Shown: positions 32,175 to 64,000 of the stretch, piece by piece
Position numbering within the stretch: the stretch's first letter is position 1
Layout of the letters: each line of letters opens with the position of its first letter
From: Helicobacteraceae bacterium
GTDB lineage: Bacteria; Campylobacterota; Campylobacteria; Campylobacterales; SZUA-545
Reading direction: 5' to 3'
Length of the DNA: 64,000 nt
Assembly (NCBI GenBank): GCA_031286325.1
Contig: JAITUT010000044.1
Span: 27-64,026 of the forward strand
The notes under the pieces: generated by a model
Told to the model about the DNA's origin: nothing
The model's input: the letters and a program-made list of their open reading frames with translations, nothing else
The model's database searches: none
Made by a program: the position numbers and the translations under genes

Positions 32175-32250
32175 GTGTCCATAGCTCAATGGATAGAGCA
32201 TCGGTTTGCGGTGCCGAAGGTTGCAGGTTCGAGTCCTGCTGGGCACGCCA
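32175..32250 (+). tRNA. tRNA, anticodon GCG by manual folding (Arg)
   Basis: It folds as a 76-nt cloverleaf: acceptor GTGTCCA/TGGGCAC, D arm GCTC-AATGGATA-GAGC, anticodon arm TCGGT-TTGCGGT-GCCGA, T arm GCAGG-TTCGAGT-CCTGC, and an encoded CCA. Confidence 0.85.
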
Positions 32251-46382: not shown

Positions 46383-46388
46383 TTATTA

Positions 46389-47621: not shown

Positions 47622-47623
47622 AG

Positions 47624-48304
47624 TTATAAATCTTTTATATTGTTGAAAAGTAACGGTAGTTTGTCTTCGTAAGTTCGGAAACCTGTACCGTGATTTCGAG
47701 CCATTGTGCCTTTGTCGTGTAAACGTAAATCTACCAAAACATTTTCAGCACGAAATTGGTTGGCTAACAATTCCGGCGAAGTTCCTTGCATAAGTTGTGC
47801 GCGATAAAAATGAAAATGTTCTACTCCGTTGCGTTCTTCTGTGAATGTTGAAACAAAAAGTAACGCAGGTAATTTTTGCATAAAGCGGTCAGCCAAAGTT
47901 TGGAGCAGCCAAGTAGCAACAATTTCTCCCGAAATGTGACGAACGGAAATTTCAGTTTTTTGCACGTCAAGAAATAAACCGGCGCTATTTGGTTTGAGCG
48001 ACATCGTGTAATAAAGCCCCTGTCTGCCATCTTTATCCAAACTACCATATTTTTTTACGGCTTCCAATGGAGGCATTTTCCAAACTTTATTGTTGAAAGT
48101 GAAAAGCGTAATCAAGCTATTGCCTTTCGTTCTATGCGCTTTCAGTTCGGCGCCTTCAATATCGGGGCGAGCCTCATTATTTTCAGCAATTCCTAATAAA
48201 GTTTCAAGCGTATAGCCGATACCTGTTGGACCTTTTCGTTTTGTTGGGACAAAACCTAAGCCTTTGATTTGTTTAAATTTATACGTAAATTCTTCTATTT
48301 TCAT
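47624..48304 (-). CDS. Type II restriction endonuclease, MvaI/BcnI-like
   Basis: 226 aa. The blocks GPTGIGYTLETLLGI, RPDIEGAELKAHRTKGNSLITLFTF, VEHFHFYRAQLM and VLVDLRLHDKG...NHGTGFR resemble BcnI/MvaI as I remember them. It lies 2 nt upstream of the methyltransferase gene. Confidence 0.65.
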   Translation of the reverse strand: MKIEEFTYKFKQIKGLGFVPTKRKGPTGIGYTLETLLGIAENNEARPDIEGAELKAHRTKGNSLITLFTFNNKVWKMPPLEAVKKYGSLDKDGRQGLYYTMSLKPNSAGLFLDVQKTEISVRHISGEIVATWLLQTLADRFMQKLPALLFVSTFTEERNGVEHFHFYRAQLMQGTSPELLANQFRAENVLVDLRLHDKGTMARNHGTGFRTYEDKLPLLFNNIKDL

Positions 48305-48515
48305 GTTTTATATTTTAATAATTGTAAAGATACAATTCTTTCAAATTGCTTTGGTTTTTCGTAAACCCCATCTTTGAACAACGTACTGCCCAAAATTGTA
48401 TACAACGCCCAAGCGGCTTGCTACAGATACGGGGTTTGCCGAACTTTCCACGAGGCGCCAACGGTGATGTCGCACATTTATTGCACGGCGACGAACCCGT
48501 CTCCGCGCTTGCGAT

Positions 48516-48535
48516 AAACCGATCATTGTGGGCAG
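48516..48535. repeat. right copy of the direct repeat bracketing the R-M islet
   Basis: See 45413..45432. Confidence 0.8.
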
Positions 48536-48641
48536 GCGTTTTATGCAATTTCTTCAATTTGCGCTTTTCCCCCAATTTCTCTACTTTCGCTTTTTCTTCC
48601 ATTACCGCTATTAAATCGCTTTTCGCAAGCAATATCGGCGA

Positions 48642-49436
48642 TCAGTTAAACGACAAGATCAGCTGAGTCGCGATCGCGCCAATCATCTGCTCCCAATCAT
48701 CGTCCGTTACCGAAATTTTCTCCACTTTCGCGCCGATCTCGTTCGCGACCGCTTGCGCGCTCTTGTCGCTCTCGCCCGAGATCGCGAAGATCATCGTAAT
48801 TTTCTCTTTTTTCGCCGCTTCCACAGCCGCCGCTATATCCGCAGGTTTCGCCTCGCCGTTTTTGTCAATGGCGATCTGGCGCAATTTGTAATCCGCCGCG
48901 AAATATCCCAGCGCGGGGTGATTGACCATAAACGCTCTGCCATTGTATTGCGCGAGCATTGAAATCGCCTGCGAAAATGTGCGATCTACCGCTTGCAAAA
49001 GTTTCATTCCGTTTATTTGGTATGTGCCGGCGTTTTTGACGTCCGCCTCGCTGAGCGCTTTCATAGTCGCTTGAACCATAACGCGCGTTCCAGCTTTGGA
49101 GACCCAAATATGCGTATCGCCGCCCACTTTAGCAAAACCCTGATCCGTATAATAGACTTTCAAATTCGGCGCGGCGGAGGTTAGCTTGCCTATCCACGCT
49201 TTCTCAAACTCCAAACCGCACGCTAAATAGATGTGCGCCTTTGAGAGCTCCGCCATCTGCGCGGGCTTTGGCTCGTAGGAGTGCGCGTCCACTCCCGCGG
49301 GCACGATCACGATCACATCGGCGAGATCGCCCGCGATATTCTTGACCATCCATTGCTGCGACGCGATGCTCACCGCGACCGTTACTTTCGCAAGGGCGAG
49401 CGAAACGCTAAACAAGAGCAGAATTATCATACGCAT
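48642..49436 (-). CDS. metal (Zn/Mn-type) ABC transporter substrate-binding protein
   Basis: 264 aa with a signal peptide and the TroA/ZnuA-like blocks VDAHSYEPKP and HPALGYFA. No permease or ATPase gene is adjacent. Confidence 0.8.
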   Translation of the reverse strand: MRMIILLLFSVSLALAKVTVAVSIASQQWMVKNIAGDLADVIVIVPAGVDAHSYEPKPAQMAELSKAHIYLACGLEFEKAWIGKLTSAAPNLKVYYTDQGFAKVGGDTHIWVSKAGTRVMVQATMKALSEADVKNAGTYQINGMKLLQAVDRTFSQAISMLAQYNGRAFMVNHPALGYFAADYKLRQIAIDKNGEAKPADIAAAVEAAKKEKITMIFAISGESDKSAQAVANEIGAKVEKISVTDDDWEQMIGAIATQLILSFN

Positions 49437-49506
49437 AGTGGCTCCTTATCGCAAATTTACGCAATTATAGCGCAAAGTCTAAAGAATAATTGATAGAATT
49501 ACCGCT

Positions 49507-49845
49507 ATGGCAAATAACGATTACGATATAAGAGACGAACTTTTAGGCGAGGTCGGCGCGCGACCGATCTTGCGCGCCTCGCATTTCGGGGTTGCGGCGG
49601 CGATCGCGGCGTTCGCTTTCTATATATACTATTTGTTTTACGGCGGCGCTTCTTTGCTGACTTTAATGAGTATCCGCGAGGAGAAAGCCACGCTTGATTC
49701 GCGCGTGGAGGCGCTCAAAGCCGAGAACGCCGCGTTGCGCAGAGAACTCTTTGAGCTTCGTTTAATCGGCGGCGAAAACTTTGGCAAGCGATCAGGCGGC
49801 TCGGTTGAAAAACGCGCCGAACCGAAGCAAAAGGACGCGGAGTGA
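49507..49845 (+). CDS. FtsB/DivIC-like septum formation initiator
   Basis: 112 aa with one TM segment followed by a leucine-zipper-like coiled coil (LDSRVEALKAENAALRRELFELR). Confidence 0.6.
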   Translation: MANNDYDIRDELLGEVGARPILRASHFGVAAAIAAFAFYIYYLFYGGASLLTLMSIREEKATLDSRVEALKAENAALRRELFELRLIGGENFGKRSGGSVEKRAEPKQKDAE

Positions 49846-50480
49846 AAAAATTGATGTTTTTTTCGCTCGCGATATTTGCCATCTCGGCTATCTTCGCCGC
49901 GAGTCTTTTCGCCCGCCAAAATCCCTTTGAACTGCCCGAAGATATGAGCGATCGCAACTCTACGATCGCGCTTTTGCCGCAACAACTTGAAGAGGAAAAA
50001 ATTGAGTTGCCTCTTACGTCTAGGATTTTGCGCGGCATTAGCGTTACGCACCAAGAGGATGACGGCACGATCGCCACGATCAACCGCAGAGTAGATCGCC
50101 TCGTTGATCCGCGAGCGTTGCTCCGCGTAGATCAGCCGAACGCAGAAAAATTGCCGCGCAAAAGCGGCGTATTTTTGCCCGTTGAGCCGCTCGAAAACAT
50201 TGAGCGCGTTAAATTTTTTACCGCCGGCGATGTGATGAAAATCCGCACAAAAGACGTTTTAGAACGTAGCTTTTTCTTGCCGCGACCCGGAAGAATCACG
50301 CTTGATTTCAACAGCAGCGTGCCTTTGAAACCGCAATCTACGCCGCTTATCGGCGGATTTTTCACGGCGATTGACATTACGTTTCACGACTCGTTTTACC
50401 GCGTGGTCGTTACGCTTGACGCCTATTACCCATACACGATCGAGCGCGTCTCGGACGGCTACTTGCTTGGACTTAATTAA
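49842..50480 (+). CDS. secreted protein with a C-terminal AMIN-like domain
   Basis: 212 aa with a signal peptide. The C-terminal pattern RITLDF...FYRVVVTL resembles AMIN domains. A GTGA overlap joins it to the upstream gene. Confidence 0.5.
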   Translation: MKKLMFFSLAIFAISAIFAASLFARQNPFELPEDMSDRNSTIALLPQQLEEEKIELPLTSRILRGISVTHQEDDGTIATINRRVDRLVDPRALLRVDQPNAEKLPRKSGVFLPVEPLENIERVKFFTAGDVMKIRTKDVLERSFFLPRPGRITLDFNSSVPLKPQSTPLIGGFFTAIDITFHDSFYRVVVTLDAYYPYTIERVSDGYLLGLN

Positions 50481-50563
50481 AATTAATACGTTAAAATTGA
50501 TATAGATCAAAAAATTTTGCTATCATAGGGCTTTCCCAAAATTCGTTAAGAGAGGTGCGGCAA

Positions 50564-50785
50564 ATGGGCGAAGTCTCAGAGGAGAGGCGCGAGTTTCTCA
50601 AGCGCGCTAAAAGCGCGGCGATCGCGGTAGGCGCGGGCGCGGTCGTCATAGCGGCGACTACGCAGAGTTATGCGCGCGGCGAAACAAACGGCAAAGGCGG
50701 CGTGGCGGTCGGTAGATCGCGCAAAAGCGAAATACTTTATCGCAAAACCCAGCAGTGGGAGCAATTTTACAAATCCGCTATGTGA
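50564..50785 (+). CDS. small twin-arginine-signal protein of formate dehydrogenase loci
   Basis: It has the Tat motif ERREFLKRA and a C-terminal LYRKTQQWEQFY, close to the conserved Y-[HRK]-x-[TS]-x-H-[IV]-x-x-[YF]-Y tail I recall for this family. It lies immediately upstream of fdhA. Confidence 0.65.
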   Translation: MGEVSEERREFLKRAKSAAIAVGAGAVVIAATTQSYARGETNGKGGVAVGRSRKSEILYRKTQQWEQFYKSAM

Positions 50786-50796
50786 AAGGGATTGGA

Positions 50797-53595
50797 ATGA
50801 ACGCAAGAGAGAGCCGCTTAGGGCGGCGCAGTTTTTTAAAACTCGGCGCTCTCGCCGGGGCGATCGGCGCTACAAACGCGCTGGGAGCCAACGAGGCGAT
50901 CAGACCCGCGAGCGAAGCGGAGTTAAAAGAAGCGTATCCGGGCAGCTTAAAGATCAAAACGATCTGCACGCATTGCTCGGTAGGTTGCGGCGTAATCGCC
51001 GAAGTAAAAGACGGGGTTTGGTTGCGCCAAGAAGTAGCGCAAGATCACCCGATCAGCGCAGGCGGGCATTGCTGTAAGGGCGCGGATTTGATTGACAAAT
51101 ACCGCTCTACGAATCGTCTGAAATATCCTATGGAAAAAGTAGGCGGCAAGTGGAAAAAAGTAGAGTGGAACGCGGCTTTAGACAAAGTCGCGGGCAAACT
51201 CAAAGAGCTGCGAGAGGCGCACGGACCGGATTCCGTAATGTTTTTGGGAAGCGCGAAAGTTTCAAACGAGCAATCCTATTACATTCGCAAATTCGCGGCG
51301 TTTTTCGGCACGAACAACATAGATCACCAAGCAAGAATCTGACACAGCCCAACAGTCGCCGGTGTGGCGAACACATTAGGGTATGGCGGAATGACGAACC
51401 ATTTAGGGGATATGCAAGTTAGCAAAGCGATCCTCATAATGGGCGCGAATCCGGCTGTGAATCACCCTGTGGCTATGCAACATATCTTGAAAGCGAAAGA
51501 GAAAAACGGCGCGAAGATCATCGTGATTGATCCGCGCTATACTAAAACTGCGGCGAAGAGCGACATTTTCGTGCGGATTCGCACAGGAACCGACGTGCCG
51601 TTTTTATACGGAATGATTCGCCTCGCAATCAAAAACGGCTGGATGGACAAAGACTTTATTCGCGATCGCGTATATGGCTTTGACAACGTCGCGCAAGAGT
51701 GCGAGAAATGGACGCCTGAGTTAGTCTCCGATGTCTGCGGTTGCTCGGTTGAGGACTTTAACCAAGCGGTCAAAGCTTTCGCGGCGGCGAAACCCGGTTG
51801 CTTAATCTGGAACCAAGGCTGGACTCAACACACGATCGGCACCAGCAATACGCGGCTTGGACCTATTATGCAGATGGTATTCGGCAATATGGGTAAATCG
51901 GGCGGCGGCTGCAACATTCTGCGCGGGCACGACAATGTGCAGGGCGCTAGCGATATGTGTAACCTCTCAGACAGCCTGCCAGGTTATTACGGCTTGGCGG
52001 AGGGCATTTGGAAATACTTCGCGGGCGTTTGGGGGGTGGATTACGACTACCTCGTAGGACGTTTCAAATCCAAAGATATGATGGAGAAGACGGGCTTCGC
52101 GCTCTCAAACTTCTGGATGGGCGTATTAAATGACGAAAACGCGGAAAACAACGCGGGAACTCCGCTGAAAGCGCTTGTCGTGATCGGCAACGGCATTACA
52201 ACCGTTACGCAGACGCACAAAGTTAAAGAGGCGCTAGACAAGCTTGAGTTAGTCGTCTTTATTGACCCGTATGTGAATGACGCGGCGGTTATCACTGATC
52301 GCGGCGACAATTTGTTTTTGTTGCCGGCGACGAGCCAAGTAGAGACTTCGGGTAGCGTGGCGGCGACAAATCGCAGTTACCAGTGGCGATCGCAAGTCGT
52401 GAAACCGTTGTACGAGGCTAAACCCGATCAGGACATTCTCTTTGAACTCGCGAAACGGCTTGGCTTCTATAGCGAGCTCGTAAAATCGCTAGGCAAAGGC
52501 GGCGGCGATTATGTGTGGCCCGATGACGCCACTAAGGAGCTTTGCGGCGCGATCAGATCAATCGGTCTTGGCGGCGTAACCCCAGAAAGGCTCAAAGCGC
52601 AGCAGGAAAATTGGCACTTATTCAACCCCGTAACCCTCGCCGGCTTCGGCAAAATGCAGGGCGCTTATTACGGCTTGCCGTGGCCTTGCTGGAACGAAAA
52701 ACACCCCGGCACTCCCGTGATGTATGACGTTAGCAAACCCGTAATGCAAGGCGGCGGTATGGGATTCCGCGAGAATTGGGGCGTCGATAAAGACGGCGTA
52801 ACTCTGCTGGCGGGCAACACTCCCGTAGGATCAAGCGTCAAAGGCGGCTATCCGCGCATTACATTTGAAACGATCGAGAAACTCGGCGTCAAACTCACCG
52901 ACGAGGAACGCGAGAAAGTTAAAGGCAAAAACTTCGCGACCGATCGCTCGGGAATTTTGGTAAACAAAGCATTGGAAGCGGGACTTTGCCCATACGGCAA
53001 CGGCAGGGCGCGCGCTACCGTGTGGAACTTCACCGACATAATTCCGAAGCACCGCGAACCCTTGCACTCATTTAGGCAGGATTTGGTGGCGAAATTCCCA
53101 ACCTTTGACGACAAAAAGGGGCACTTCCGCGCCAATATCCGCTACAAGAGCGAGCAGGATAAACAAGAATGGGTTAAAGATTATCCCGTCAATGTCGTAA
53201 CTGGCCGCGTGGTAGAGCATATGGGTACCGGCACCGAGACGCGCGCCTCAAAATACCTCGCGGAACTTTCGCCCGAGATGTTCATTGAGATTCACCCCGA
53301 ACTCGCGGGCAAATTAGGCGTGAGAGACGGCGATATGGTTTGGGTTTACGGCACGGGCGAGGGCAAAATTAAAGTCAAGGCGGTTTATGGCTACACGCTT
53401 GACGTTGACTCAATTTTCTTGCCGCAGAACTTTTCGGGCGTGTGGAGCGGTAAGAGCCTAAAAGATCGCTATCCCGACGATACCGCGCCGTACGCGCTGG
53501 GTGAAAACAGCGGGCAGGTTACGAGCTACGGCTACGATATTCAGACGACTTGCCCTGAAACGAAGTGCACGCTCGTGCGGATAGAGAAGGCTTAA
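50797..53595 (+). CDS. fdhA: formate dehydrogenase catalytic subunit, selenocysteine-containing (in-frame TGA at 51340..51342)
   Basis: Track ORFs 50755..51342 and 51364..53595 are in the same frame. The read-through junction HQARI-U-HSPTVAG matches the Sec motif of FdnG/FdhF-type enzymes. It has the Tat signal RLGRRSFLK and the N-terminal 4Fe-4S motif CTHCSVGC. ATG 50797 follows a GAAAGGG RBS. Confidence 0.9.
51343..51375 (+). promoter_or_regulatory. candidate SECIS hairpin
   Basis: TCGCC ggtgt GGCGA (51356-51370), starting 14 nt after the UGA. The loop contains GGUG. The stem is short, so this is tentative. Confidence 0.35.
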
Positions 53596-53618
53596 AGGCG
53601 CGAGCAAAGCCTGTAAAT

Positions 53619-53653
53619 CCCGTTGCGATTGCTGGTAATGGCGACGCAACGGG
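53619..53653. repeat. palindromic element CCCGTTGCG-N17-CGCAACGGG in the fdhA-fdhB gap
   Basis: The same 9-bp arms occur with a 5-nt loop at 15534-15556. A half-copy (aaatcccgttgc) lies after flgC at about 56100. Confidence 0.6.
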
Positions 53654-53917
53654 CGAAGATCGCGCTCGGCGCAACGCGGTAGTCGCTGAAAGCGGCGTTC
53701 TGCGAAAGCTAGCGCGGAGGCGATTTTCGGGATTTTTCAGAGACTTTAGGTCTTTAGTCGCAGCGGCGGTTTTCTACGCGATAATAGACGCTTTGCGTTC
53801 TATCGCTACCTACGCGATGACGGACACCTTGCGTCCTATCGCTGCGCCGCCGCGAGAAGTTAAATAAGCGCGCAAGGCAAAACCTTGTACGCGAAGTAAA
53901 CCAAAAAGGCTATCCAT

Positions 53918-54514
53918 ATGGGACGAATGAAGTTTTATTGCGATGAGAATCGCTGTATAAGTTGCAAGGGGTGCGTAGTGGCTTGTAAAGAAGCGCACGA
54001 AATCCCTGTTGGCGTTAATCGCCGCCGCGTGGTAAGGATCAAAGAGGGTGTAATAGGCGAGGAGATGAGCCTTAGCGTAGCGTGTATGCACTGCTCTGAC
54101 GCGCCTTGCCAGCAAATTTGCCCGACCGATTGCTTTTATATCCGCGAGGACGGCGTGGTTCTGCACGACAAGCGCAAGTGTATAGGTTGCTCCTATTGCC
54201 TCTTCGCTTGCCCGTTCGGCGCGCCGCAATTTCCGCGCAACGGCGCGTTCGGCACGAAGGGCAAGATGGACAAATGCACATTTTGCGCCGGCGGTCCTGA
54301 GGAGACATTATCGAAAGAAGAGTTTCACCTCTACGGGCAAAACCGAATGGCGGAGGGCAAGCCGCCGATGTGCGCCTCTATGTGCTCCACGAAAGCACTT
54401 TTGGCGGGCGATAGCGACGAGGTGAGCCAAATTTACCTCACAAGGCGGGTTTCGCGCGGCAAAGGCACGGATAATGTCCCGCCGATTTGGAGCCAAGCTT
54501 ATGGCGGCAAATAA
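53918..54514 (+). CDS. fdhB: formate dehydrogenase iron-sulfur subunit
   Basis: 198 aa with four ferredoxin-type Cys clusters (CISCKGCVVAC, CMHCSDAPC, CIGCSYCLFAC, CTFC). Confidence 0.9.
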   Translation: MGRMKFYCDENRCISCKGCVVACKEAHEIPVGVNRRRVVRIKEGVIGEEMSLSVACMHCSDAPCQQICPTDCFYIREDGVVLHDKRKCIGCSYCLFACPFGAPQFPRNGAFGTKGKMDKCTFCAGGPEETLSKEEFHLYGQNRMAEGKPPMCASMCSTKALLAGDSDEVSQIYLTRRVSRGKGTDNVPPIWSQAYGGK

Positions 54515-55463
54515 CGCGATCGAAACCTTTTTTAAGCGCAACCAAGCCTACTTCTGGACGGCTTTGGGCTTGGGCATAGGCGGATCGTTCTTTGTCTTCG
54601 TTCTGTTGATCGTGGATTGGAACTACTTTTTCCGCTACACGATCGCGCTTATCACAGAGGGCAACTATCAGGGCGTTTTAGACCCGCCCGCGAGTAATTT
54701 GGAGGTGATGAAAAACGCGGCGTTCGGACCCGTCTATGACGCTTTCGCCCCCGAAATCATACGCGGCAGTAACGAGCGGCAGCTTCTGATTTGGTATTTG
54801 TTCCTCTTTGAGGCGGCGATTTTCGCGCTGATGTATGTATTTTTCGGGCGCAAAAGCGCGGTGATCACGCGCCCGAACGACACCGTTGAGGTTTTCACCC
54901 CCTTTCAGCGGCTCGTGATTTGGAGCAATGTCGCGATCGTGGTGTTTTTGATCGTCAGCGGTTTTAACATTACTTGGGCGTTGCGCAGCGAAGGCGGAAT
55001 GATCCCGTATTACCTGCGCAGTTTCCACGAGATCGTGGGGTTGGCGTGGATTCCGCTCTGGCTTGTAACCTCAATAATGACTTTCAAAGACTGCCCGATC
55101 CTGCGCAAACATAGTGCTTTTCAGTTCTTTATGCCGGGTCGCTACAAGCCGTTTAGAAGGATCATTTGGTTTTTCTATGTAACGATGGGCGGCGGGCTGA
55201 TTTTGAGCGGCTTTTTCCTGTGGTTTTTGCACCCGAACGCTCTTACGAATGCCGAGCTAATCCAGCTCAAACGCACATTTATTTACTTTCACTTCGGCAC
55301 GAGCTTGCCGCTAATGTTCTTTTTGCTGGATTTCGCGCACTCCGTTACGACTGCGATTCGCGGTAATTTGGGCTACCTTTGGACGGGGCGCTTCCCAAGA
55401 GAGCATTTAGAGCAGCTTGATCCTGAAGTTTTAGAGGATTTGAAGCGCGTTGGGAGAGCGTAA
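54501..55463 (+). CDS. fdhC: formate dehydrogenase membrane (cytochrome b-type) subunit
   Basis: A polytopic membrane protein with conserved His in TM segments. ATG 54501 overlaps the fdhB end by 14 nt. Confidence 0.7.
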   Translation: MAANNAIETFFKRNQAYFWTALGLGIGGSFFVFVLLIVDWNYFFRYTIALITEGNYQGVLDPPASNLEVMKNAAFGPVYDAFAPEIIRGSNERQLLIWYLFLFEAAIFALMYVFFGRKSAVITRPNDTVEVFTPFQRLVIWSNVAIVVFLIVSGFNITWALRSEGGMIPYYLRSFHEIVGLAWIPLWLVTSIMTFKDCPILRKHSAFQFFMPGRYKPFRRIIWFFYVTMGGGLILSGFFLWFLHPNALTNAELIQLKRTFIYFHFGTSLPLMFFLLDFAHSVTTAIRGNLGYLWTGRFPREHLEQLDPEVLEDLKRVGRA

Positions 55464-55480
55464 TTTTTAGATCGCGGCGG

Positions 55481-55510
55481 GCTTTAAGTTTACGCTTAAA
55501 GCTTGTTCGC
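55481..55510 (+). terminator. possible terminator after fdhC
   Basis: Perfect 8-bp stem GCTTTAAG tttacg CTTAAAGC followed by ttgtt. Confidence 0.35.
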
Positions 55511-55539
55511 GATCTGATTTTTGCGATTTTGCCGATATT

Positions 55540-55558
55540 AAGGAACGAATTTTGCTTA
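55540..55558 (+). promoter_or_regulatory. sigma54 (RpoN)-type promoter upstream of flgC
   Basis: aaGGAACGAATTTTGCTTa has GG at 55542-43 and GC at 55554-55, matching the TTGGAAC-N4-TTTGCTT form used for Campylobacter/Helicobacter class 2 flagellar genes. Confidence 0.6.
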
Positions 55559-55594
55559 AATTTTTGTAAAATTTGGGCGAAAGAGGGTCTTAAA

Positions 55595-56092
55595 ATGGCG
55601 TTTATGAACTCGTTTGACATCAGCGGTTACGGGCTTTCGGCGCAGAGATTTCGCCTGAATTTGATCAGCACGAATATCGCGAACGCCAGCACAACACGCA
55701 CCGACGAGGGCGGGCCATACCGCCGCCAAAGCGTAGTCTTTCGCGCGGTGGATTTTGACAAGCATTTGAATCGGCAACTCGCCAAAAACACGAAACCGCT
55801 TGGTTACGAAGACCCTTTGGACGAGGAGTTGGGTTATGAGAAAAAGTTAAATCCCGCCGTGATGAGCGTGATTGTGGATAAAGTCGTGCGGGACGACACC
55901 ACGCCTAAAATGCGCTACGAGCCTACGCACCCCGACGCCGATAAAGACGGCTATGTCGCATACCCGAATGTGAATCCTGTGGTGGAAATGGCGGATATGA
56001 TCGAGGCGAGCCGCGCGTATCAGGCGAATGTGGCGGCGTTTCAGAGCGCGAAGACCATCGCGAATACCGCTTTGGAAATGATGAGATCGTAA
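55595..56092 (+). CDS. flgC: flagellar basal-body rod protein FlgC
   Basis: The start MAFMNSFDISGYGLSAQR follows an AGAGGG RBS. It has NIANASTTRT and C-terminal EMADMIEASRAYQANV. Confidence 0.9.
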   Translation: MAFMNSFDISGYGLSAQRFRLNLISTNIANASTTRTDEGGPYRRQSVVFRAVDFDKHLNRQLAKNTKPLGYEDPLDEELGYEKKLNPAVMSVIVDKVVRDDTTPKMRYEPTHPDADKDGYVAYPNVNPVVEMADMIEASRAYQANVAAFQSAKTIANTALEMMRS

Positions 56093-56195
56093 ACAGATAA
56101 ATCCCGTTGCCAGCGGCGGGCGAAATTAGCGAGACAAAGTTTTGATCAGAAACGCCGATCTTAAGTCGGCGTAAAAAGTAAAATAGGAGCATAAA

Positions 56196-56501
56196 GTGGC
56201 GGATTTATTAAATAAAATTGGCGAAATTCTTCCGAGAGAGCTAGGTCAAGCCCCGCAAAAAGTTTCGGAAAATCCGAGCGAATTTGATTTTGCCGAGATG
56301 TTGCGCAATAATTTGGACGAAACGAACTATTTGCAAGAAGAGGGCGAAAAGGCGGCGACCGACATCGCGACTGGAATGGTCAAAGACCTGCACCAAGCCG
56401 CGATCGCGCTCAACAAAGCCGAAGGCTCTATGAAACTAATGCTTGAAATGCGCAACAAAGCCGTGAGCGCGTATAAAGAGATCGTCAGAACACAAATGTA
56501 A
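56196..56501 (+). CDS. fliE: flagellar hook-basal body complex protein FliE
   Basis: 101 aa with a GTG start after an AGGAG RBS. The C-terminus is ...MRNKAVSAYKEIVRTQM. Confidence 0.85.
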   Translation: MADLLNKIGEILPRELGQAPQKVSENPSEFDFAEMLRNNLDETNYLQEEGEKAATDIATGMVKDLHQAAIALNKAEGSMKLMLEMRNKAVSAYKEIVRTQM

Positions 56502-56522
56502 TTCGCGGCGATTTCGCTTTTT

Positions 56523-57026
56523 TTGGATCGTTTCGCGCGGTATTTTTTTAATAGCAGCGCGTATAGGACGTATGTTTGCCAGCTTGCGGATACGCCGAGA
56601 TTTAAGCCGATTGAGGCGAGCGGGTTAATTAACAAATTAAGCCACGATGTAAAGCGCGGTTCGCCGTTTTCGCCCGAAGCGATAAAGCAACTAAAGGACG
56701 GGATAAAAGCGGCGAATGAAGCTGTGGAGAAGTTATCGCCGAACGCCGAAGCGAATGAGATTAAAGAGAGCATAGAAAAGGCGATTGACGAAGCCGCGCC
56801 GATGACAAAGTCGGCGATAAGCGATCAGCGCGAGAAAACAGGCGTTTGGAATGTAACTTTTAACGGCAAAAACGCTACTGAAATTAGGGCGGCGGACGCG
56901 GACGGAATTATTAGATACGAGAGAGGAGGCAGAAAAGGGGGCGCGATCCACATTGCGCAAAAACATATAGGCGAAGGTAAATATGGCGAACTCACAAAAC
57001 AAGAAATAACAAAATGGGAGAGATAA
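56523..57026 (+). CDS. N-terminal fragment of the polyvalent protein (frame-separated from the main ORF); contains the head of a nuclease-like module
   Basis: The frame is open from the fliE stop onward, and only a TTG start at 56523 is available. IHIAQKH lies at 56946-56966. The domain appears to continue in the next ORF (IIRNGDI...YRVVVFE...ITMY). Confidence 0.55.
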   Translation: MDRFARYFFNSSAYRTYVCQLADTPRFKPIEASGLINKLSHDVKRGSPFSPEAIKQLKDGIKAANEAVEKLSPNAEANEIKESIEKAIDEAAPMTKSAISDQREKTGVWNVTFNGKNATEIRAADADGIIRYERGGRKGGAIHIAQKHIGEGKYGELTKQEITKWER

Positions 57027-60000
57027 TCCGCAACGGCGATATTCCAGAAGATTTAATTAAAACGTTTCCCGACGGATCAAAAACTTACGCTTATGAATTG
57101 ACGGAAAACGACATAAGATATAGGGTGGTTGTGTTTGAGTGGAGCGACGAAAAGAAAGTAATTACAATGTATTCAGATAGAAATACCGGTAAAGGAGACC
57201 CAGTTAGTCAATCCAATACCGGCGAGAAAATCATACCAGAAAATAATGGGTTGTCAAGGGCGCAAAACAAAAAGCCAAATGACGGCGGCGCGGGCGGAGA
57301 AACGGCGAGCGAGCCAGTTTTGGATAATCCGAATAAACCGAATAATCCCGATAATCCAAAGGGCGGCGCGGGAGATCAAGCGGTGGCGGCGCAAGTTGAA
57401 AAAGAGGAGTTGACGGAGAGCGCGGGAAACGCGGAGAGCGGCGCGGGCGAACACAATTCGCCCCTACGGGAGAACGCGGCGGGCGCGGTTAATTCGCCTA
57501 ACGCGCAAAGATCGCCAACGTCCGACGATTTAATAAAATTGCACAAAGACGGCGGGAAAGCGGTAATCTCTACGCTAGAGCCTGCGGAAGTAGCGGAAGT
57601 TGAGAAAATCCTGAACGATAGCGGGATTGAATTTGCCTATAAGAAAACTCCCGTCAATCGCGTGATAGATAGCGAGGGGATTACGCATATATTGCGCGAA
57701 CACGGCAACGAAGCGACCGAAGCGGCGCGGGGCAATATCGCGGTAACTTTTGAAGATATAGCGAACTACGAAAACATTATTAAAAGCGCGGATATGTCAG
57801 AAGCGACCGCTACGAAAAACGCGCCGCGAATCGCGCACGGTAAACAAGTAAACGGCTATTTTATCGTAGTAGAAGAAGCAAGAACAAAAACGGGCGAGCT
57901 AAGACTAGTTACTATGAGAAAGCAGAGAGGAAAATTAACGAGGGCTGCGTTATGGCTCGCCAAAGACAAGCCCCACCGCTCTACGTCCGAAACGACCCCT
58001 CTGGGGCAAACGCCGCGCGCAACGAATGCCTTAAATGAAAGTATACCGCAAGCGAGGGATTTGTCAAGAGAACAACTAGAACAACTTAACGCGCTGGACG
58101 AAAGCAAATTAACAGACGGACAGGCGTTAACGCGCGATATGTTTTTGGGAAAAGCGAACGAAGCGATTTTGAGAATGAAAGACGGACGCGTTTTCACGGA
58201 TTATTATAGAAATAAAGACTGGATAGTTGCTTTTAAGCGCGACGGAAAGCCAAGCGAAGTAAACAGAAACGCGTGGAGCGGAGAACTGCTAGAAATCAGC
58301 GATGTAATCCGAAACGGCGAATTAGCTTTTGACGGCGTTACGGAAAACGGCGCGATAAGATACGCATACGAGATGACGAAAAAATATGACGTTTTGCCCG
58401 ATGAAATTTTCAAGTTTAAGGTTGTAATAGAGGAGAACGCGGATCAGACTGTAACGATTGATTTTTATAAGGGAAATATAAAGACGAAAGAGCCGATCGC
58501 CCGCGAAACGCAAGCGGCAAAAGAAAGTATAAACGCGGGGAAAGCCGAAAAGGAATTGTCGGAGGGCGCGGAGTCAAGCTCTTCTAAAGTCATTCGCGGC
58601 GTTTTGGATCGCTCGCTACAAAGAGCGGAGAAAGCCAAAGAACAGATTAAAGAGCTCAACGAAAAGCTAGAAAAAAGCGTATCGTTTGAGGAAACAAAAA
58701 GCCTCTCTGCCGCGATCGAAGAACAAGAGCGGCATTTAGACGACGCTTTGCGCGGCGCAAACGAAGCAAGAAAACAGATCGCGGATGGCGCGATTGATTT
58801 ATTATTGAATGAAAAACAAGGCGAGGTAAAGGGCGCGTTGCACAATAAGCACGTGGGCGATATTGATCTGCCGTGGGGCGAGGCGGGAACGGGCAAAAGC
58901 GACGGTTGGGGGCTGGCGAAAATAGAGAAGTTTCACCCGGAAGTATTAGACAATTTGCAAGAGATTTTAAGCGATATGGAGATTAAAAGCAAAAGCGAAA
59001 ATAGAATAAGACTTGAAAGCGACCGCCATTCTGCGTCCGTGAGGCTAGATTATAACGGAGAAAAAAAGAAATGGTTACTCACGGCGTATGAAAAAGAAAC
59101 AAGCAAGAACGCCACCCCCGCAGGCACGACGAACATCTACGAGAACCCCAAAAACGGAGCAATTGAGAATGGCTACTCTCAAAGCGGCGTTAATGAAAGT
59201 ATATCGCAAACGGCGGAGTTGTCAAGATATATAGAGCTAATAAATAATGATTATAGAGAGTTTAATAAACCAATAAATTATGATTGGCTTATAAAGCTCG
59301 GAATGGGCGCGGAAGATATAGCGCAGTTGAGACTTTTCCACGAAAGGAGTCAAAAATACGGAACAACAAAGCCTCTAAACCAAGCAAGAAAGCTTTTAAC
59401 CGCGTTTAGAGATAGCTTGTTACGCGAGAAGCAAAGCGGCGGCGGATCGGGCGACGCGGGCAAAAGTATACCGCAAGCGGGGGATTTGTCAAGCGCGAGG
59501 GCAATCGCTGAAAGCGGCTCGAATGTTTCCAAAGTAGAAAGCGCGGCGGGCGCGGAAACGTCGGCGCGGTCGGCGATCGCGGGCGAACGCGGTTCGCCGC
59601 TATGGGAGAACGCGGAAAGCGCGGAAAGCGCGGCGATCGGCGCGAAAACGAAAGAAGATTTCAGCCTTGAGGATACGAATAGGATTTACGGCGGGGCAAG
59701 CAAACGCGCGGACGATAATCTGAAAGCGATTAGGTTATTAAAGCAATTAGAGAGCGAAGATAGAGCCGCGACGAAAGAGGAACAGGAGATTTTATCGCGT
59801 TATGTGGGTTGGGGCGGCGTGAAAGAGATATTCACAAATCTCAAAAAAGGTTGGGAGAATAGATTTAACGAGTTAAAGAGTTTGCTAACGGACGACGAAT
59901 ATAAAGCCGCGCGATCTTCCACGCAATACGCGCATTACACGGATTATAGAATAGTGAAAACCGTGTGGAAAGCTCTGGATAAATTAGGTTTATTGCCAGC

Positions 60001-63000
60001 TTTGCCCCAAAAATCTACGATTTTTGGGGACCCCGCCGATAAAACAATTAGAGTATTAGAGCCGAGCGCGGGGGTTGGGAATTTCTTTATGTTCGCGCCG
60101 AAAGGTTTGCGCTTTGAGAAGTTCGCGGTAGAGAAAGACGATATTTCAGCGAGGATCGCGGCGAAATTATTCCCGAATACTAGATTGGCGAAAAGAGGTT
60201 TTGAGGAGACGAATTTTGAGCGAAATTCCTTTGATTTAATTATTGGAAACCCGCCCTTTTCGGAAAATACCGCCACTTCCGCGCTGGATCAGAAGTTTGG
60301 CGAACTTGCGGGAATGTCTTTGCATAATTACTTTTTGGCGAAATCAGCCGCGTTGCTTAAAGAGGGCGGCGCGATGGGCGTAATTGTAACGCGGAATTTT
60401 ATGGACGCGGCAAACGCCGACGCGCGGGAATATCTGCAAAGGCAAGGGTTAGATTTAATGGCGGCGGTAAGATTGCCGAATAACTCTTTCAAAGAAAACG
60501 CGAATACTTCTGTAACGACCGATCTATTGATATTCCGCAAAAGGAAAGCGGGCGAAACCGCGCTTAATGATAATTGGGTAAAGACGGCGAAAGTAGAGGA
60601 TATTAACGGCGGCGAAGCGATAAAGACGAACGCCTTTTTCGCGGAAAATCCTGAAAATATGTTTGGCGTTTGGGCGCGCGCGAAACACGGGCAATACGGC
60701 GCGAACGAGGAAACTTTAATCGCGAGAGAGGGAAGCGATATATTCGCCGATCTTGATAAATGGGCGGATAATTTGAGCGGCGCGGAAACGAAAACCGATA
60801 ATTCCCGACGCGATCTAGCGGCGGGCGAAAATCGCCCTGCAGAGCAGAACGGCGATTTTCGGGAGAGTCAAGAGACGAAGTCTTTTGTCGGAGCGGAGGC
60901 TTTGCCTTCGCGAGAAATAGAAAGAAAACCCGCTTTACAGCATATTTACGAAATGGGCGCGGGCGCGGGAGATATAAGAATAACTGGGGATGGCAAATTA
61001 GCGCGGATCGTAAAAGACGAATTGGGAGACGATGTATTAGAGGAAGTTGATCCGATAGAGCTTTTAACGACGCGCGACGAGTTTAACGCGTTTGATTTAG
61101 CGAAACAAGAGAAGTTAAGAAAACAAGCCTCCGAAGCCGCCGAAAGATATAAAGCGGCTTTGGAGCTTTATTCGCTTCGCGCGAAATTATCAAAAGCGGA
61201 GTTAAATATAGGGAGCAAGAAAGAGGATATTGAGGCTTTGCGCGGCGAATTAAATAAGACGTATGACGACTATACGCGCGAATTTGGCGCGATAAACGCG
61301 CCGCAAAACTCTTCCGTATTGGGCGATACGGCTTTTTATCCGACTTTGCAAACGTTAGAAGACGTCAAGAAGATAAGCGGCAAAAGAATTTATGAGCGAG
61401 CCGGAGCGTTAAATAGACGATCGCAATTTCCATACGTAAAAGCGGAGAAAGCGGATAGCGCGGTTAACGCTTTGGCGATTTCGCTGGACGAAACGGGCGG
61501 TTTGGATTTAGCGCGGATTGCCGAGTTGCGAGGCATTGACGAAAGCGCGGCGGAGAGAGAATTATTAACGGACGGATTGGCGTTTTACGACCCGAAAAAG
61601 GCGCGTTTAGTCGCGAAAGACGAGTATTTAAGCGGAAATGTAAAGGCGAAATTGCGCGAGGCTAAGGCGGCGTATCAAGAGACGAACGATCCGCGCCTAG
61701 CGGCGAATATAGAGGAGTTGGAGAAAATCCAGCCGGCGAAAGTAAGCATAACGGAAGTTCATATACCTTTTGCTTCGGCGTGGATACCGATTGAAGTAAT
61801 GGAAGATTTCGCGCGGGAAGTCTTGAAAACTTCAATAAGCGCGAAACAAGTAATAGACGGCAAATGGAAGATAAGCGTAATGGGCAATGTTCCGTCCGAT
61901 GTTCGCGCGATTTTCGCGACGGAAAAGAAAGATTTAGAAGACGTCTTAAACGCGGCGGCGAATCAGCGCGAATTGCGCGTGAATAAGAAAGATAACTTTG
62001 GAAATCCAATAACGGATATAGGCGCGACGCAAGAGGCGAACGCGAAAGTTAAAGCTCTCAAAGAGGCGTGGAGCGAATGGCTGACTGCGGACGGCAAACG
62101 CGCTATAGAATTAGAAGATTTGTATAACGAGCGATTTAATAATCTTGCGGAGCGGAAATATGACGGCTCTAAGCTTTCGTTTATCGGCAAAGTTCACGAC
62201 GCTATTGTGAAACTTAGAACGCACCAAAAGAACGCCGCTTTCCGTATTTTGCAGGAGAAAACCGCGCTGCTTGATCACACGGTAGGAAGCGGCAAGACGT
62301 TTTCTATGATTAGCGCGATAATGGAGTTAAGGCGGCAAGGACAGGCGAAGAAGATAATAGTCGTCGTGCCGAATCATCTTGTGGAGCAATGGCGAAAAGA
62401 TTTCGCGAAACTTTATCCCGAATCTAATGTTTTAGCGATTGGGCAAGGCAAATACACATCTAAAAACCGCAATCGGCTAAATAACCGCATTATGAATCAG
62501 GACTTTGACGCGGTAATAATGCCGATTAGCTCTTTTACGCAATTGGGTGTTTCGCCGCAATTGGAGCGGCAATATCTAGAGGAAGAAATTCGCTTGGTAA
62601 TGGAAGCGGAAAAGGCGGCGAGAATAGAGAGCGGCGGCAAAAGAAGCCAATCTTTGCGCGATTTGGAGAGAAAGCGCGAAAGTTTGCAAGATAAAATTAA
62701 ATCGCGCCAGCGGAAAATAGCGAAAAGGCAGGATAAGAGCGTTTGGTTTGACGAGTTGGGAATTGACGCGCTTTTTGTCGACGAGGCGCAGGAGTTTAAG
62801 AATTTAGGTTTCGCTACGACTTTGCGAAATGTGGCGGGAATTGGAAACGCGGAAGGCTCGCAAAGGGCGCAGGATTTATTCTATAAAACGCGCTTTTTGA
62901 GCGGTCAAGATAAGCGGATTGTATTCGCTACGGGAACGCCGATAAGCAATTCGCTGACGGAGGCTTATACTTTGCAGAGATATTTGGATTATGAGACTTT

Positions 63001-64000
63001 GCGGAGAGAAAATCTCGCGGCATTTGACAATTGGGTTAAGCAATTCGGGCAAATTGAGAGCGATTTTGAGGTTACGGGCGTAAATACGATGAAAGAGCGA
63101 ACGCGGCTAAGAAGTTATGTGAATGTCGCGCAACTTAAAAAGTTGTATAAACGTTTCGCCGATTGCGTAACGACCGCCGATGTAAAACGGATCGCGGAGG
63201 AGAACGGCGAAAAGCTAATGATACCGCCAATTAACGGCGGCAAAGCGAAAACGCTAGCCGCCGAGATAAGCGATCATCAACGCGAGTATTTTAAGAAATT
63301 GCAAGAACGCGCGGATAATATAAAGCGCGGCGATAAAGACAATATGCTGAACATTTTAACCGACGGGAATAAAGCCTCGTTGGATTACAGGTTGATAGAT
63401 AAAAACGCGCCCGATTTCGCGGGAAGCAAAGTAAATCTGGCAGTTGATAATATCGTGAATGATTATAAAGCGTGGGAGAAAGACAAGGGAACGCAACTAG
63501 TATTTTGCGATTTATCCACGCCGAAGAAGATCACAAAGGGTTTGCAAACGGCGCGGAAAACGCTGGAGGAGAAATTAGCGAAAGCGAACGCGGGAGACGC
63601 GAACGCGGAAGCTTGGCTAGAAAAGAATTATTCCGCGCCCGGAGCGATCGAGGATATGCTTAATGTCGACGGGTTTAGCGTTTATGACGATGTAAAGCAA
63701 AAACTAATCGCGCGCGGAATACCAGAAAACGAAATCGCCTTTATTCACGATTTTGAGGGCAAATCGCGCAAAGAGGAGCTTTTTGACAAAGTTAATAAAG
63801 GCGAAATACGGGTTTTATTAGGCAGTTCGGGCAAAATGGGATCGGGAATGAATGTGCAGGAGCGGTTAGTCTCGTTACATCATCTTGATTGCCCTTATCG
63901 CCCCTCTGATTTGGAGCAGAGAAACGGGCGAAAGCGAGCTGAGGTAAATGCTTTAAGAACAAAATACTTCCCGCAAATCTCTTTGTATGGCAAATACGAT
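57014..64000 (+). CDS. giant polyvalent protein (3' partial): repeated nuclease-like modules + N6-adenine DNA methyltransferase + SNF2/DEAD-type helicase
   Basis: I translated by hand from ATG 57014 (frame 2) to nt 64000 without meeting a stop (2329 codons). The track does not list it because it has no stop. The motifs are given under the sub-features below. Confidence 0.85.
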   Translation, partial: MGEIIRNGDIPEDLIKTFPDGSKTYAYELTENDIRYRVVVFEWSDEKKVITMYSDRNTGKGDPVSQSNTGEKIIPENNGLSRAQNKKPNDGGAGGETASEPVLDNPNKPNNPDNPKGGAGDQAVAAQVEKEELTESAGNAESGAGEHNSPLRENAAGAVNSPNAQRSPTSDDLIKLHKDGGKAVISTLEPAEVAEVEKILNDSGIEFAYKKTPVNRVIDSEGITHILREHGNEATEAARGNIAVTFEDIANYENIIKSADMSEATATKNAPRIAHGKQVNGYFIVVEEARTKTGELRLVTMRKQRGKLTRAALWLAKDKPHRSTSETTPLGQTPRATNALNESIPQARDLSREQLEQLNALDESKLTDGQALTRDMFLGKANEAILRMKDGRVFTDYYRNKDWIVAFKRDGKPSEVNRNAWSGELLEISDVIRNGELAFDGVTENGAIRYAYEMTKKYDVLPDEIFKFKVVIEENADQTVTIDFYKGNIKTKEPIARETQAAKESINAGKAEKELSEGAESSSSKVIRGVLDRSLQRAEKAKEQIKELNEKLEKSVSFEETKSLSAAIEEQERHLDDALRGANEARKQIADGAIDLLLNEKQGEVKGALHNKHVGDIDLPWGEAGTGKSDGWGLAKIEKFHPEVLDNLQEILSDMEIKSKSENRIRLESDRHSASVRLDYNGEKKKWLLTAYEKETSKNATPAGTTNIYENPKNGAIENGYSQSGVNESISQTAELSRYIELINNDYREFNKPINYDWLIKLGMGAEDIAQLRLFHERSQKYGTTKPLNQARKLLTAFRDSLLREKQSGGGSGDAGKSIPQAGDLSSARAIAESGSNVSKVESAAGAETSARSAIAGERGSPLWENAESAESAAIGAKTKEDFSLEDTNRIYGGASKRADDNLKAIRLLKQLESEDRAATKEEQEILSRYVGWGGVKEIFTNLKKGWENRFNELKSLLTDDEYKAARSSTQYAHYTDYRIVKTVWKALDKLGLLPALPQKSTIFGDPADKTIRVLEPSAGVGNFFMFAPKGLRFEKFAVEKDDISARIAAKLFPNTRLAKRGFEETNFERNSFDLIIGNPPFSENTATSALDQKFGELAGMSLHNYFLAKSAALLKEGGAMGVIVTRNFMDAANADAREYLQRQGLDLMAAVRLPNNSFKENANTSVTTDLLIFRKRKAGETALNDNWVKTAKVEDINGGEAIKTNAFFAENPENMFGVWARAKHGQYGANEETLIAREGSDIFADLDKWADNLSGAETKTDNSRRDLAAGENRPAEQNGDFRESQETKSFVGAEALPSREIERKPALQHIYEMGAGAGDIRITGDGKLARIVKDELGDDVLEEVDPIELLTTRDEFNAFDLAKQEKLRKQASEAAERYKAALELYSLRAKLSKAELNIGSKKEDIEALRGELNKTYDDYTREFGAINAPQNSSVLGDTAFYPTLQTLEDVKKISGKRIYERAGALNRRSQFPYVKAEKADSAVNALAISLDETGGLDLARIAELRGIDESAAERELLTDGLAFYDPKKARLVAKDEYLSGNVKAKLREAKAAYQETNDPRLAANIEELEKIQPAKVSITEVHIPFASAWIPIEVMEDFAREVLKTSISAKQVIDGKWKISVMGNVPSDVRAIFATEKKDLEDVLNAAANQRELRVNKKDNFGNPITDIGATQEANAKVKALKEAWSEWLTADGKRAIELEDLYNERFNNLAERKYDGSKLSFIGKVHDAIVKLRTHQKNAAFRILQEKTALLDHTVGSGKTFSMISAIMELRRQGQAKKIIVVVPNHLVEQWRKDFAKLYPESNVLAIGQGKYTSKNRNRLNNRIMNQDFDAVIMPISSFTQLGVSPQLERQYLEEEIRLVMEAEKAARIESGGKRSQSLRDLERKRESLQDKIKSRQRKIAKRQDKSVWFDELGIDALFVDEAQEFKNLGFATTLRNVAGIGNAEGSQRAQDLFYKTRFLSGQDKRIVFATGTPISNSLTEAYTLQRYLDYETLRRENLAAFDNWVKQFGQIESDFEVTGVNTMKERTRLRSYVNVAQLKKLYKRFADCVTTADVKRIAEENGEKLMIPPINGGKAKTLAAEISDHQREYFKKLQERADNIKRGDKDNMLNILTDGNKASLDYRLIDKNAPDFAGSKVNLAVDNIVNDYKAWEKDKGTQLVFCDLSTPKKITKGLQTARKTLEEKLAKANAGDANAEAWLEKNYSAPGAIEDMLNVDGFSVYDDVKQKLIARGIPENEIAFIHDFEGKSRKEELFDKVNKGEIRVLLGSSGKMGSGMNVQERLVSLHHLDCPYRPSDLEQRNGRKRAEVNALRTKYFPQISLYGKYD
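57680..57706 (+). other. His-x4-His signature of nuclease-like module 2 (ITHILREHG)
   Basis: The same pattern recurs at 56946-56966 (IHIAQKH) and 58910-58942 (GLAKIEKFHPE). Each is followed by a beta-rich segment ending in ..TMY/..TAY/..DFY. Confidence 0.45.
59801..60545 (+). other. N6-adenine DNA methyltransferase domain of the giant ORF
   Basis: YVGWGG at 59801-59818, motif I VLEPSAGVGNF at 60053-60085 and motif IV GNPPF at 60245-60259. Confidence 0.8.
62210..63931 (+). other. SNF2/DEAD-like helicase domain of the giant ORF
   Basis: Walker A VGSGKT at 62282-62299, DEAQ box VDEAQE at 62777-62794, motif III-like ATGTPISNS, and motif VI start QRNGR at 63917-63931. Confidence 0.8.

Follow-up and report, generated by a model that had tools for sequence, protein, structure and literature searches.

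Background

Polyvalent proteins combine many effectors; phages and conjugative elements deliver them to a new host along with the DNA, or produce them first. The class, together with its methylase-helicase dyad, was described in 2017 by Iyer, Burroughs, Anand, de Souza and Aravind (PMC5512222). DarB of phage P1 is packaged in the virion head and blocks restriction by EcoK and EcoB; P1 is the one case in which virion packaging and cis action are known (PMC9024508). In Helicobacter, OrfQ of TnPZ is a helicase and methylase open reading frame (ORF) of at least 2,800 codons (PMC2731543), and the prophages of Helicobacter pylori commonly decay, gather frameshifts and break at the DUF3519 gene (PMC11321410). 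Here we analyze a 64,000-nucleotide stretch of contig JAITUT010000044.1 from a Helicobacteraceae bacterium, which we refer to as the window, and in particular the giant open frame that follows the flagellar gene fliE at its 3' end.

An earlier note on this DNA had placed a polyvalent gene directly after fliE, composed of BECR-type nuclease modules, an N6-methyltransferase and an SNF2 helicase, and of mobile origin. Searches of Pfam and PHROGs bear out the domains in that reading, and Pfam recognizes FliE at 56196-56501. The TnPZ methylase-helicase ORF of about 2,800 codons that the note had mentioned agrees with the published OrfQ. We hold with good confidence that the interval from about 56.5 to 64.0 kb represents the first ~2,470 codons of one horizontally acquired, damaged polyvalent-protein gene.

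Results

Extent and architecture of the giant frame

The frame that begins at ATG 57014 on the forward strand runs without a stop to position 64000, a length of 2,329 codons, as the earlier note had reported. If codons were used uniformly the chance of 2,329 stop-free codons would be (61/64)^2329, or about 1e-49, and the frame is therefore not due to chance. The note had called the ORF unlisted. It is indeed missing from the ORF track, but this is an artefact of the tool, because frames that run off the source are not listed, and NCBI already holds the product as P0001 (2,346 amino acids, 100% identical to the giant-frame product). That record is named 'MAG: DEAD/DEAH box helicase family protein, partial [Helicobacteraceae bacterium]', where MAG stands for metagenome-assembled genome, and it lies on a contig of 64,076 nucleotides. 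The window is nearly the entire contig, whose end, about 51 nucleotides past the window, truncates the gene. Residue numbers given here for the giant frame are counted from ATG 57014.

The features of the region, all on the forward strand, are as follows.

56196..56501, forward: fliE, the last conserved chromosomal gene (Pfam FliE, 83.6 bits)
56523..57026, forward: upstream ORF, one base off the giant frame, with a leader and the first half of module 1
56841..57184, forward: module 1, ~115 amino acids, extending across both frames
57011..57014, forward: A4 run, the frameshift site, where ACA AAA followed by ATG GGA restores module 1
57224..57265, forward: linker copy 1, GEKIIPENNGLSRAQ (also given as GEKIIPENNGLS)
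residues ~85-180, forward: low-complexity linker after copy 1, holding AGEHNSPLRENA (57443-57478)
57605..57937, forward: PBECR3 module, a predicted metal-independent RNase (Pfam PF18812)
58034..58069, forward: linker copy 2, NESIPQARDLSR, motif NESIPQARDLS
58280..58489, forward: module A', a degenerate C-terminal half of module 1 without the His helix
~58523-58565, forward: linker copy 3, KESINAGKAEKELS, residue ~504, after module A'
58838..59101, forward: PBECR1 module, a predicted RNase (Pfam PF18809)
59192..59227, forward: linker copy 4, NESISQTAELSR, motif NESISQTAELS
59459..59494, forward: linker copy 5, GKSIPQAGDLSS, motif GKSIPQAGDLS
59620..63931, forward: DarB-like dyad, made up of an N-terminal helical region, an N6-adenine methyltransferase, a central region, SNF2/ResIII and Helicase_C
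63932..64000, forward: tail without helicase homology, KRAEVNALRTKYFPQISLYGKYD, 69 nucleotides

PBECR3, PBECR1, the N6-adenine methyltransferase and the SNF2 helicase all lie in one frame, which by domain content places the product among the polyvalent proteins. Its N-terminal 900 residues form an array of small RNase-type modules set apart by low-complexity linkers, and its C-terminal 1,400 residues form the dyad.

The methylase-helicase dyad

Adenine methylase motifs I (xEPxxGxGxF) and IV (NPPF) are both present in the expected order, as VLEPSAGVGNF (60053-60085, residue 1014) and IIGNPPFS (60239-60262, residue 1076), and Pfam matches residues 1060-1223 (60191-60682) to Eco57I with 48.1 bits and to N6_Mtase with 33.8 bits. 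Beyond a conserved central region (~60560-62200), residues 1732-1930 (62207-62803) match SNF2/ResIII/DEAD above the cut-off, with helicase motif I as VGSGKTF (62276-62302) and motif II as FVDEAQEF (62774-62797). The Helicase_C match at residues 2240-2306 (63731-63931) is weak and ends in a truncated motif VI, QRNGR (63917-63931). Every methylase and helicase motif that the earlier note had quoted was found at its own coordinates, and profile searches for the two folds found both, in Pfam as Eco57I/N6_Mtase and SNF2/ResIII and in PHROGs as a DarB-like family.

The whole of residues ~930-2306 matches phrog_10089, 'DarB-like antirestriction', with 1,237.6 bits (E 0). The best stretch of this match covers positions 437-1379 of the 1400 in the query, and tblastn alignments in one piece reach 100% of the query. 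Alignments to homologues begin at residues ~860-890 of the giant frame. Full-length relatives of the 1,377-residue cassette occur in 141 phage records, under the names DarB-like antirestriction, DNA methylase and PLxRFG protein, and the near-complete phage matches share 29-41% identity over 83-100% of the query. Relatives were also found in 2,025 plasmid records, 213 of them from Campylobacter. The best dyad relatives carry no PBECR-type modules, except P0025, which combines PBECR3 with the dyad. By sequence no solved structure comes close; the nearest are a CamA-like methylase and the ATPase lobes of ISWI (E 4e-7 to 1e-4).

The PBECR modules

The two PBECR modules are well preserved relative to their families. 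PBECR3 occupies residues 198-308 and scores 72.1 bits against a cut-off of 30, with a further match to phrog_14348. Its His helix is GITHILREHG (57677-57706) and its C-terminal motif LRLVTMRKQR (57899-57928), and in an alignment with 10 homologues the helix (ITHILREHG) and the C-terminal Thr (LVTMRKQ) fall in conserved columns. PBECR1 occupies residues 609-696 and scores 38.5 bits against a cut-off of 27.6; it also matches phrog_13543. LAKIEKFHPE (58913-58942) and WLLTAYEKE (59072-59098) serve as its landmarks, and all 23 of the columns that are invariant among 22 homologues are kept, among them the KFHPE His and the LLTAYEK Thr. The earlier note had listed three His-x4-His heads in the giant frame. 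ITHILREHG is the PBECR3 helix, but IHIAQKH lies upstream of 57014 in another frame and KIEKFHPE has a single His.

An exhaustive search with the N-terminal 929 amino acids found 1,598 relatives, mostly via PBECR1. The best relatives that match in multiple stretches are jhp1044-like mosaics with several copies of PBECR1 and DUF3519, some of which also carry PBECR3, PBECR2 or ddrB-ParB. None of the jhp1044-like mosaics among these best multi-stretch matches has a methylase-helicase. The same 929 amino acids matched nothing among solved structures when compared by sequence, and nothing in plasmid records, on which ground a plasmid origin of the N-terminal array was rejected. No ddrB-ParB, PBECR2, peptidase or other LPD domain was detected in the window protein.

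Three stretches had been described earlier as matching no nameable family. Two of these now have a place, 57014-57230 as the C-terminal part of the split module 1 (its second half) and 60560-62200 as the middle region that DarB-like proteins conserve. The description holds for part of the third, 58070-58480, in which residues ~353-422 have no match. The rest of it belongs largely to module A' (residues ~423-492), which was recognized by BLASTP (E 4e-6) and by positions 78-128 of the module-1 hidden Markov model (i-Evalue 3.7e-4). Module A' is followed by linker copy 3 and then by a lysine- and glutamate-rich stretch, which we read as a possible coiled coil.

Module 1 and the 5' end of the gene

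Upstream of the giant frame, the ORF at 56523-57026 holds GVWNVTF (56841-56861) and a His-x4-His helix, GAIHIAQKH (56940-56966). Its stop lies 12 nucleotides past ATG 57014, in the other frame. By the sequence comparisons below, this ORF and the giant frame are one gene broken by a 1-nucleotide frameshift at the A4 run. A -1 shift at 57011-57014 is equivalent to the absence of one A from the run. When the two frames are fused, the product aligns with P0030, the nearest module-1 relative, without a gap across the junction (GELTKQEITKMGEIIRNGD in alignment with GELTPEELLNMGEIIRKGE), at 55% identity over 175 residues (E 9e-60), and it also aligns with another relative, P0031. The shift sits between the invariant Glu and the invariant Gly of module 1. 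The earlier note had taken ATG 57014 as the start of the gene and had missed the frameshift; the true 5' part lies upstream.

The frameshift is found in a second assembly. A contig of 12,521 nucleotides (L002) in the Logan assembly of SRR14710891 is 100% identical to positions 47693-60213 of the window, including the A4 run, and because it repeats the run the frameshift is not the quirk of one assembler, though both assemblies may share reads.

Module 1 matches no Pfam, PHROG or NCBIfam model. A profile search nevertheless found at least 354 proteins with the module, Campylobacterota-wide, in all of which it is in one piece. The named members are nearly all from Campylobacter and Helicobacter and are mostly stand-alone proteins of ~200 amino acids. 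The invariant residues are two His in GAxHIxxxH, followed by Gly, Glu, Gly, Arg, Phe-Arg and Ser-x-Arg; in the order of the window protein the conserved residues read H, H, G, E / G, R, Y, F-R, S-D-R, with the shift at the slash. Module 1 is also found inside giant jhp1044/HP1116-like mosaic proteins in 73 Helicobacter phage or prophage records, and the module occurs in 34 IMG/VR viral contigs. One of the mosaics is ORF11 of phage KHP40 (1,725 amino acids, encoded between primase and head genes), which is annotated as 'DUF3519 domain-containing' and 'putative virion protein' and shares 35% identity with module 1 (E 2e-12). A likeness to DUF3519 had been proposed before, and the match to this annotated protein agrees with it, but the second half of module 1 falls below the cut-off of the Pfam model itself (PF12033; 12.6 bits against 27.5, E 0.19).

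The order of motifs and the invariant residues of module 1 look like those of PBECR3, but the likeness has no statistical support: the hhalign alignment is in register on the His helix but not significant (E 0.089); hhalign against PBECR1 gave nothing. Two AlphaFold models (predicted local distance difference test scores of 55 and 68) consist of helices followed by three strands, and three Foldseek searches with them returned nothing significant and no match below E 0.09. A BECR/PBECR fold would have an N-terminal helix bearing His and then 4-5 strands with Ser/Thr. From the motifs we infer that module 1 may be RNase-like, and its family, with invariant His, Glu, Arg and Ser, is a candidate for a new RNase family.

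The frameshift might instead be tolerated or used, either by low-rate -1 slippage of tRNA-Lys on A-AAA or by re-initiation at ATG 57014, which would yield a product without module 1. The A4 run permits exact re-pairing after a -1 slip, ATG 57014 overlaps the upstream stop (ATGGGAGAGATAA), the ~2,300 downstream codons are open, and the PBECR1 invariants are all intact. We nonetheless regard this as rather unlikely, given that none of the at least 354 homologues is frameshifted here, that neither a canonical X-XXY-YYZ heptamer nor a structure downstream was identified, and that the shift separates the invariant E from the invariant G in the core of the module. Since all homologues are contiguous, a programmed frameshift conserved across the family was rejected.

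The start of the gene has three candidate codons: TTG 56523 (the NCBI/JGI call, P0064), GTG 56724 (the Logan call) and ATG 56802. The stop codon of fliE, TAA at 56499-56501, is in frame with the upstream ORF and is the only stop between the two. A further ATG, at 56573, has AGGA five bases upstream and is one base out of frame; the in-frame peptide that begins there (YVC...ASG) is loosely similar to the first residues of P0031 (MIC...ASG). The similarity may be a coincidence, or the original start may carry a second lesion. The annotation in need of correction is of one gene entered as two, with a wrong start, a frameshifted module 1 and an unreliable end.

Linkers between the modules

Every module in the window is followed by a linker motif of the form (E/K)(S/K)-I-(I/P/S/N)-(P/Q/A/E)...LS. 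Between linker copies 4 and 5, ~70 amino acids at 59222-59434 match no family. There is also a second repeat (AGEHNSPLRENA and AGERGSPLWENA, at 57443-57478 and 59579-59614). In relatives, among them P0152, P0154 and P0167, the linker takes the form (D/E/N)-I-I-P-Q. The 149 best relatives contain 31 copies of IIPQ, compared with 1.44 +/- 1.3 in shuffled sequences. Three of the five copies in P0154 lie 25-40 residues past the ends of PBECR domains reported by Pfam, and IIPQ also occurs near the C-terminus of two stand-alone module-1 proteins.

We suggest, tentatively, that the linker motif might mark sites at which the giant protein is cleaved, although we think this less probable than not. If it were so, the 'polyvalent proteins' of Campylobacterota elements would be polyproteins, from which separate small RNases and a DarB-like enzyme are set free. 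Another possibility is that the motif is a conserved joint for the shuffling of modules by recombination. Either way, it gives a starting point for tests of the processing or shuffling of polyvalent proteins.

The 3' break

In all nine homologues that were read, helicase motif VI has the form QRxGR(I/L/T/G)xRQGN and is followed by several hundred conserved residues. The window protein departs from this pattern within the motif, where QRNGR is followed by KRAEVNALRTKYFPQ. Homology ends at 63931, inside motif VI, and the PHROG match stops at residue 1379 of 1400. The superfamily 2 (SF2) helicase core is thus incomplete in the assembly: motifs I and II are there, motif VI is broken and the conserved C-terminal residues are absent.

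The break lies ~120 nucleotides before the contig end. The tail that follows amounts to 40 residues when 17 more in P0001 are counted. It resembles outer-membrane efflux proteins weakly (Pfam OEP, E 0.12), and neither the window nor any of the loci fetched holds another copy of it. No intein-like start and no start of a group II intron was seen by eye at the tail, and Rfam gave no match there at gathering scores. A search of species-representative genomes with the giant protein found nothing, nor did searches of metagenomes with the exact 28-mer before the break and with the protein, and no other assembly that covers the tail was found. The tail is either a rearrangement junction or an unreliable contig tip.

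Origin and genomic setting

The polyvalent reading was weighed against the possibility that the giant gene is a host enzyme that defends against invaders, of the Type ISP, Type III, DISARM, BREX or MADS-like kinds. A methylase fused to an SF2 helicase is also found in defence systems, NCBIfam returns weak matches to DISARM DrmD, a dnd restriction enzyme and MADS MAD2, and the gene is chromosomal, in a window that holds other defence islands. The scores of these models are however far under their cut-offs (DrmD 40.7 against 610 bits, dnd 35 against 600, MAD2 31.4 against 720), whereas the DarB-like PHROG reaches 1,238 bits. The nuclease domain and the partner genes of those defence systems are both lacking, polyvalent proteins are typified by PBECR arrays (PMC5512222), and the closest full-length relatives are in phages and conjugative plasmids. 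On this evidence a defence function is highly improbable.

Synteny with related chromosomes ends at the gene. Six related genomes, termite-gut-style Helicobacteraceae and Campylobacterales MAGs, were found by means of flgC (67-89% identical); none of them carries the giant gene. Five of them have flgC-fliE, and in all five a PBP/FtsI-type gene of ~570 amino acids begins within 3-94 nucleotides of fliE; at L004, the only locus that was read further downstream, this is followed by pyrB. DNA similarity between the window and L004, L006, L007 and L008 ends right after the fliE stop (TAA 56499-56501), and none of the neighbour genes from relatives that were tested was found in the window. The earlier note had named conservation of the locus in all relatives as an outcome that would count against its reading, and this is not what is seen: five have the PBP gene after fliE and lack the giant gene. 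Base composition shifts as well. The GC content at third codon positions (GC3) is 0.51-0.52 in the giant gene, including the upstream ORF, compared with 0.62-0.68 in most core genes sampled and 0.32-0.35 in two restriction-modification islands. A simple scan of the forward strand found no terminator or promoter between fliE and the gene. There is no landmark of tRNA or att type near the junction, the only tRNA being at 32175.

The relatives offer examples of the context in which such genes are found. P0030 is encoded in an island of ~11 kb (L001, 8987-19909, in JGI metagenome 3300042636) between the gene for a CCA-adding enzyme and ribBA. The integrase of this island is split in two, and its polyvalent gene is split into ORFs of 322, 1,165, 430 (PBECR3) and 427 amino acids, the last of which resembles the C-terminus of the single, 1,414-residue P0031. 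The island looks like another decaying copy. P0031 itself lies in a prophage-like region with further polyvalent ORFs.

The synteny break, the shift in GC3, the contexts of the relatives and the decay known in H. pylori support the conclusion that the gene is an inserted mobile-element remnant, and it is probably part of a decaying insert. Most likely we see here one edge of what is left of a prophage or integrative element, the rest of which lies beyond the contig.

Several observations weigh against this conclusion, or against parts of it. Because the contig ends inside the gene, neither an integrase nor an att site, nor any gene for packaging or transfer, can be seen, and residence in a mobile element is reached by inference; the earlier note had likewise identified no integrase or transfer gene downstream of fliE. 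P1 DarB aligns by tblastn only to query residues 45-250, within the methylase, at 29.7% identity. As judged from sequence, the term 'DarB-like' is best taken to denote a common dyad architecture and a profile family, not orthology to P1 DarB. A BECR fold for module 1 is without significant support from Foldseek searches with the AlphaFold models or from the profile comparison with PBECR3 (E 0.089). The break at 63931/63932 could be an assembly artefact. Finally, some 2,300 open codons are unexpected for an old pseudogene; since the long frame is intact the damage may be recent, or else a product restarted at ATG 57014 is still used.

That the junction of fliE with the giant gene is a chimera, in which a phage or plasmid contig was assembled onto the chromosome, is highly improbable. 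In its favour, the source is a MAG, the contig tip from 63932 onward looks unreliable and GC3 changes at the junction. Against it, Logan contig L002 spans the junction with 100% identity, beginning 8.8 kb upstream and reaching 3.7 kb into the gene, though possibly from the same reads.

Other features of the window

The ORFs at 50755-51342 and 51364-53595 share a frame that is interrupted by a single TGA (51340-51342) within DHQARI-*-HSPTVAG. The site resembles the selenocysteine site of formate dehydrogenase alpha subunits, and if it is one the pair (50755-53595) would be one putative selenoprotein gene. It is followed by a 4Fe-4S subunit (53918-54514) and then by an ORF of 329 amino acids without a Pfam match, possibly the membrane subunit of a formate dehydrogenase cluster. 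This 329-residue ORF precedes flgC, and within 54474-56092 no flgB-like ORF with a Pfam rod domain lies directly upstream of flgC; synteny upstream of flgC varies among the relatives too.

A low-GC island at 21166-24276 (GC 0.33-0.40, GC3 0.35 compared with ~0.64 for core genes) codes for a Type ISP-like restriction-modification enzyme of 1,036 amino acids, with Type_ISP_C at 240 bits and N6_Mtase/MmeI_Mtase. A second, at 45924-48304 on the reverse strand, carries a restriction endonuclease of the MvaI/BcnI family (47624-48304), a putative methylase (46389-47621, a weak match) and an ORF of 152 amino acids without assignment.

Discussion

The functions that can be proposed for the giant protein derive from its families, from P1 DarB and from Iyer et al. 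By analogy with these, the SNF2-type motor would move along DNA as it comes in, the fused N6-adenine methylase would modify that DNA on the way, and methylation would shield it against restriction by the host. The RNase modules would cleave RNAs of the host or of defence systems, and the giant protein would arrive with the DNA or be produced first. A genome of the termite-gut type of Helicobacteraceae has, on this reading, gained a DarB-like counter-restriction gene right behind flgC-fliE.

The window gene resembles the polyvalent proteins of Iyer et al. in that many effectors are placed in one polypeptide, among them PBECR RNase modules and the methylase-SF2 helicase dyad. It differs in that no element context is visible. 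Its order of modules (a jhp1044-type module, PBECR3, a half-module, PBECR1 and the dyad) was found in no retrieved relative.

The dyad is shared with DarB-like proteins of phages, for which PHROG 10089 includes examples from Erwinia phage PEp14, Burkholderia phages BcepIL02 and JC1 and Klebsiella phage SopranoGao. Like them, the window copy matches the full profile; unlike them, it has nothing after motif VI. On plasmids, a comparable protein is CLA_RS07870 of pCL2100, a pTet-type conjugative plasmid of C. lari. This SNF2-related protein of 1,934 amino acids matches the dyad at 35% identity over 83-87% of the query, and its gene adjoins those of a MobP1 relaxase and a type IV secretion system. 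OrfQ of the Helicobacter TnPZ/ICEHptfs elements agrees in architecture with the window gene as far as its published description goes; those elements carry tfs3/tfs4 type IV secretion genes and the xerT recombinase, but no type IV secretion system or xerT gene is visible in the window.

The N-terminal half of the comparison is with the jhp1044/HP1116-like proteins, which share module 1, the PBECR array and the IIPQ linker with the window protein. They differ in having no methylase-helicase, and the window protein differs from them in having no ddrB-ParB or PBECR2 and a DUF3519 match below threshold. The gene thus joins a Helicobacter-phage-type RNase array to a DarB-like dyad, a combination absent among the relatives retrieved. 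This combination is modestly unusual. It falls within the variation of the polyvalent class as described, and the picture drawn in 2017 is unchanged.

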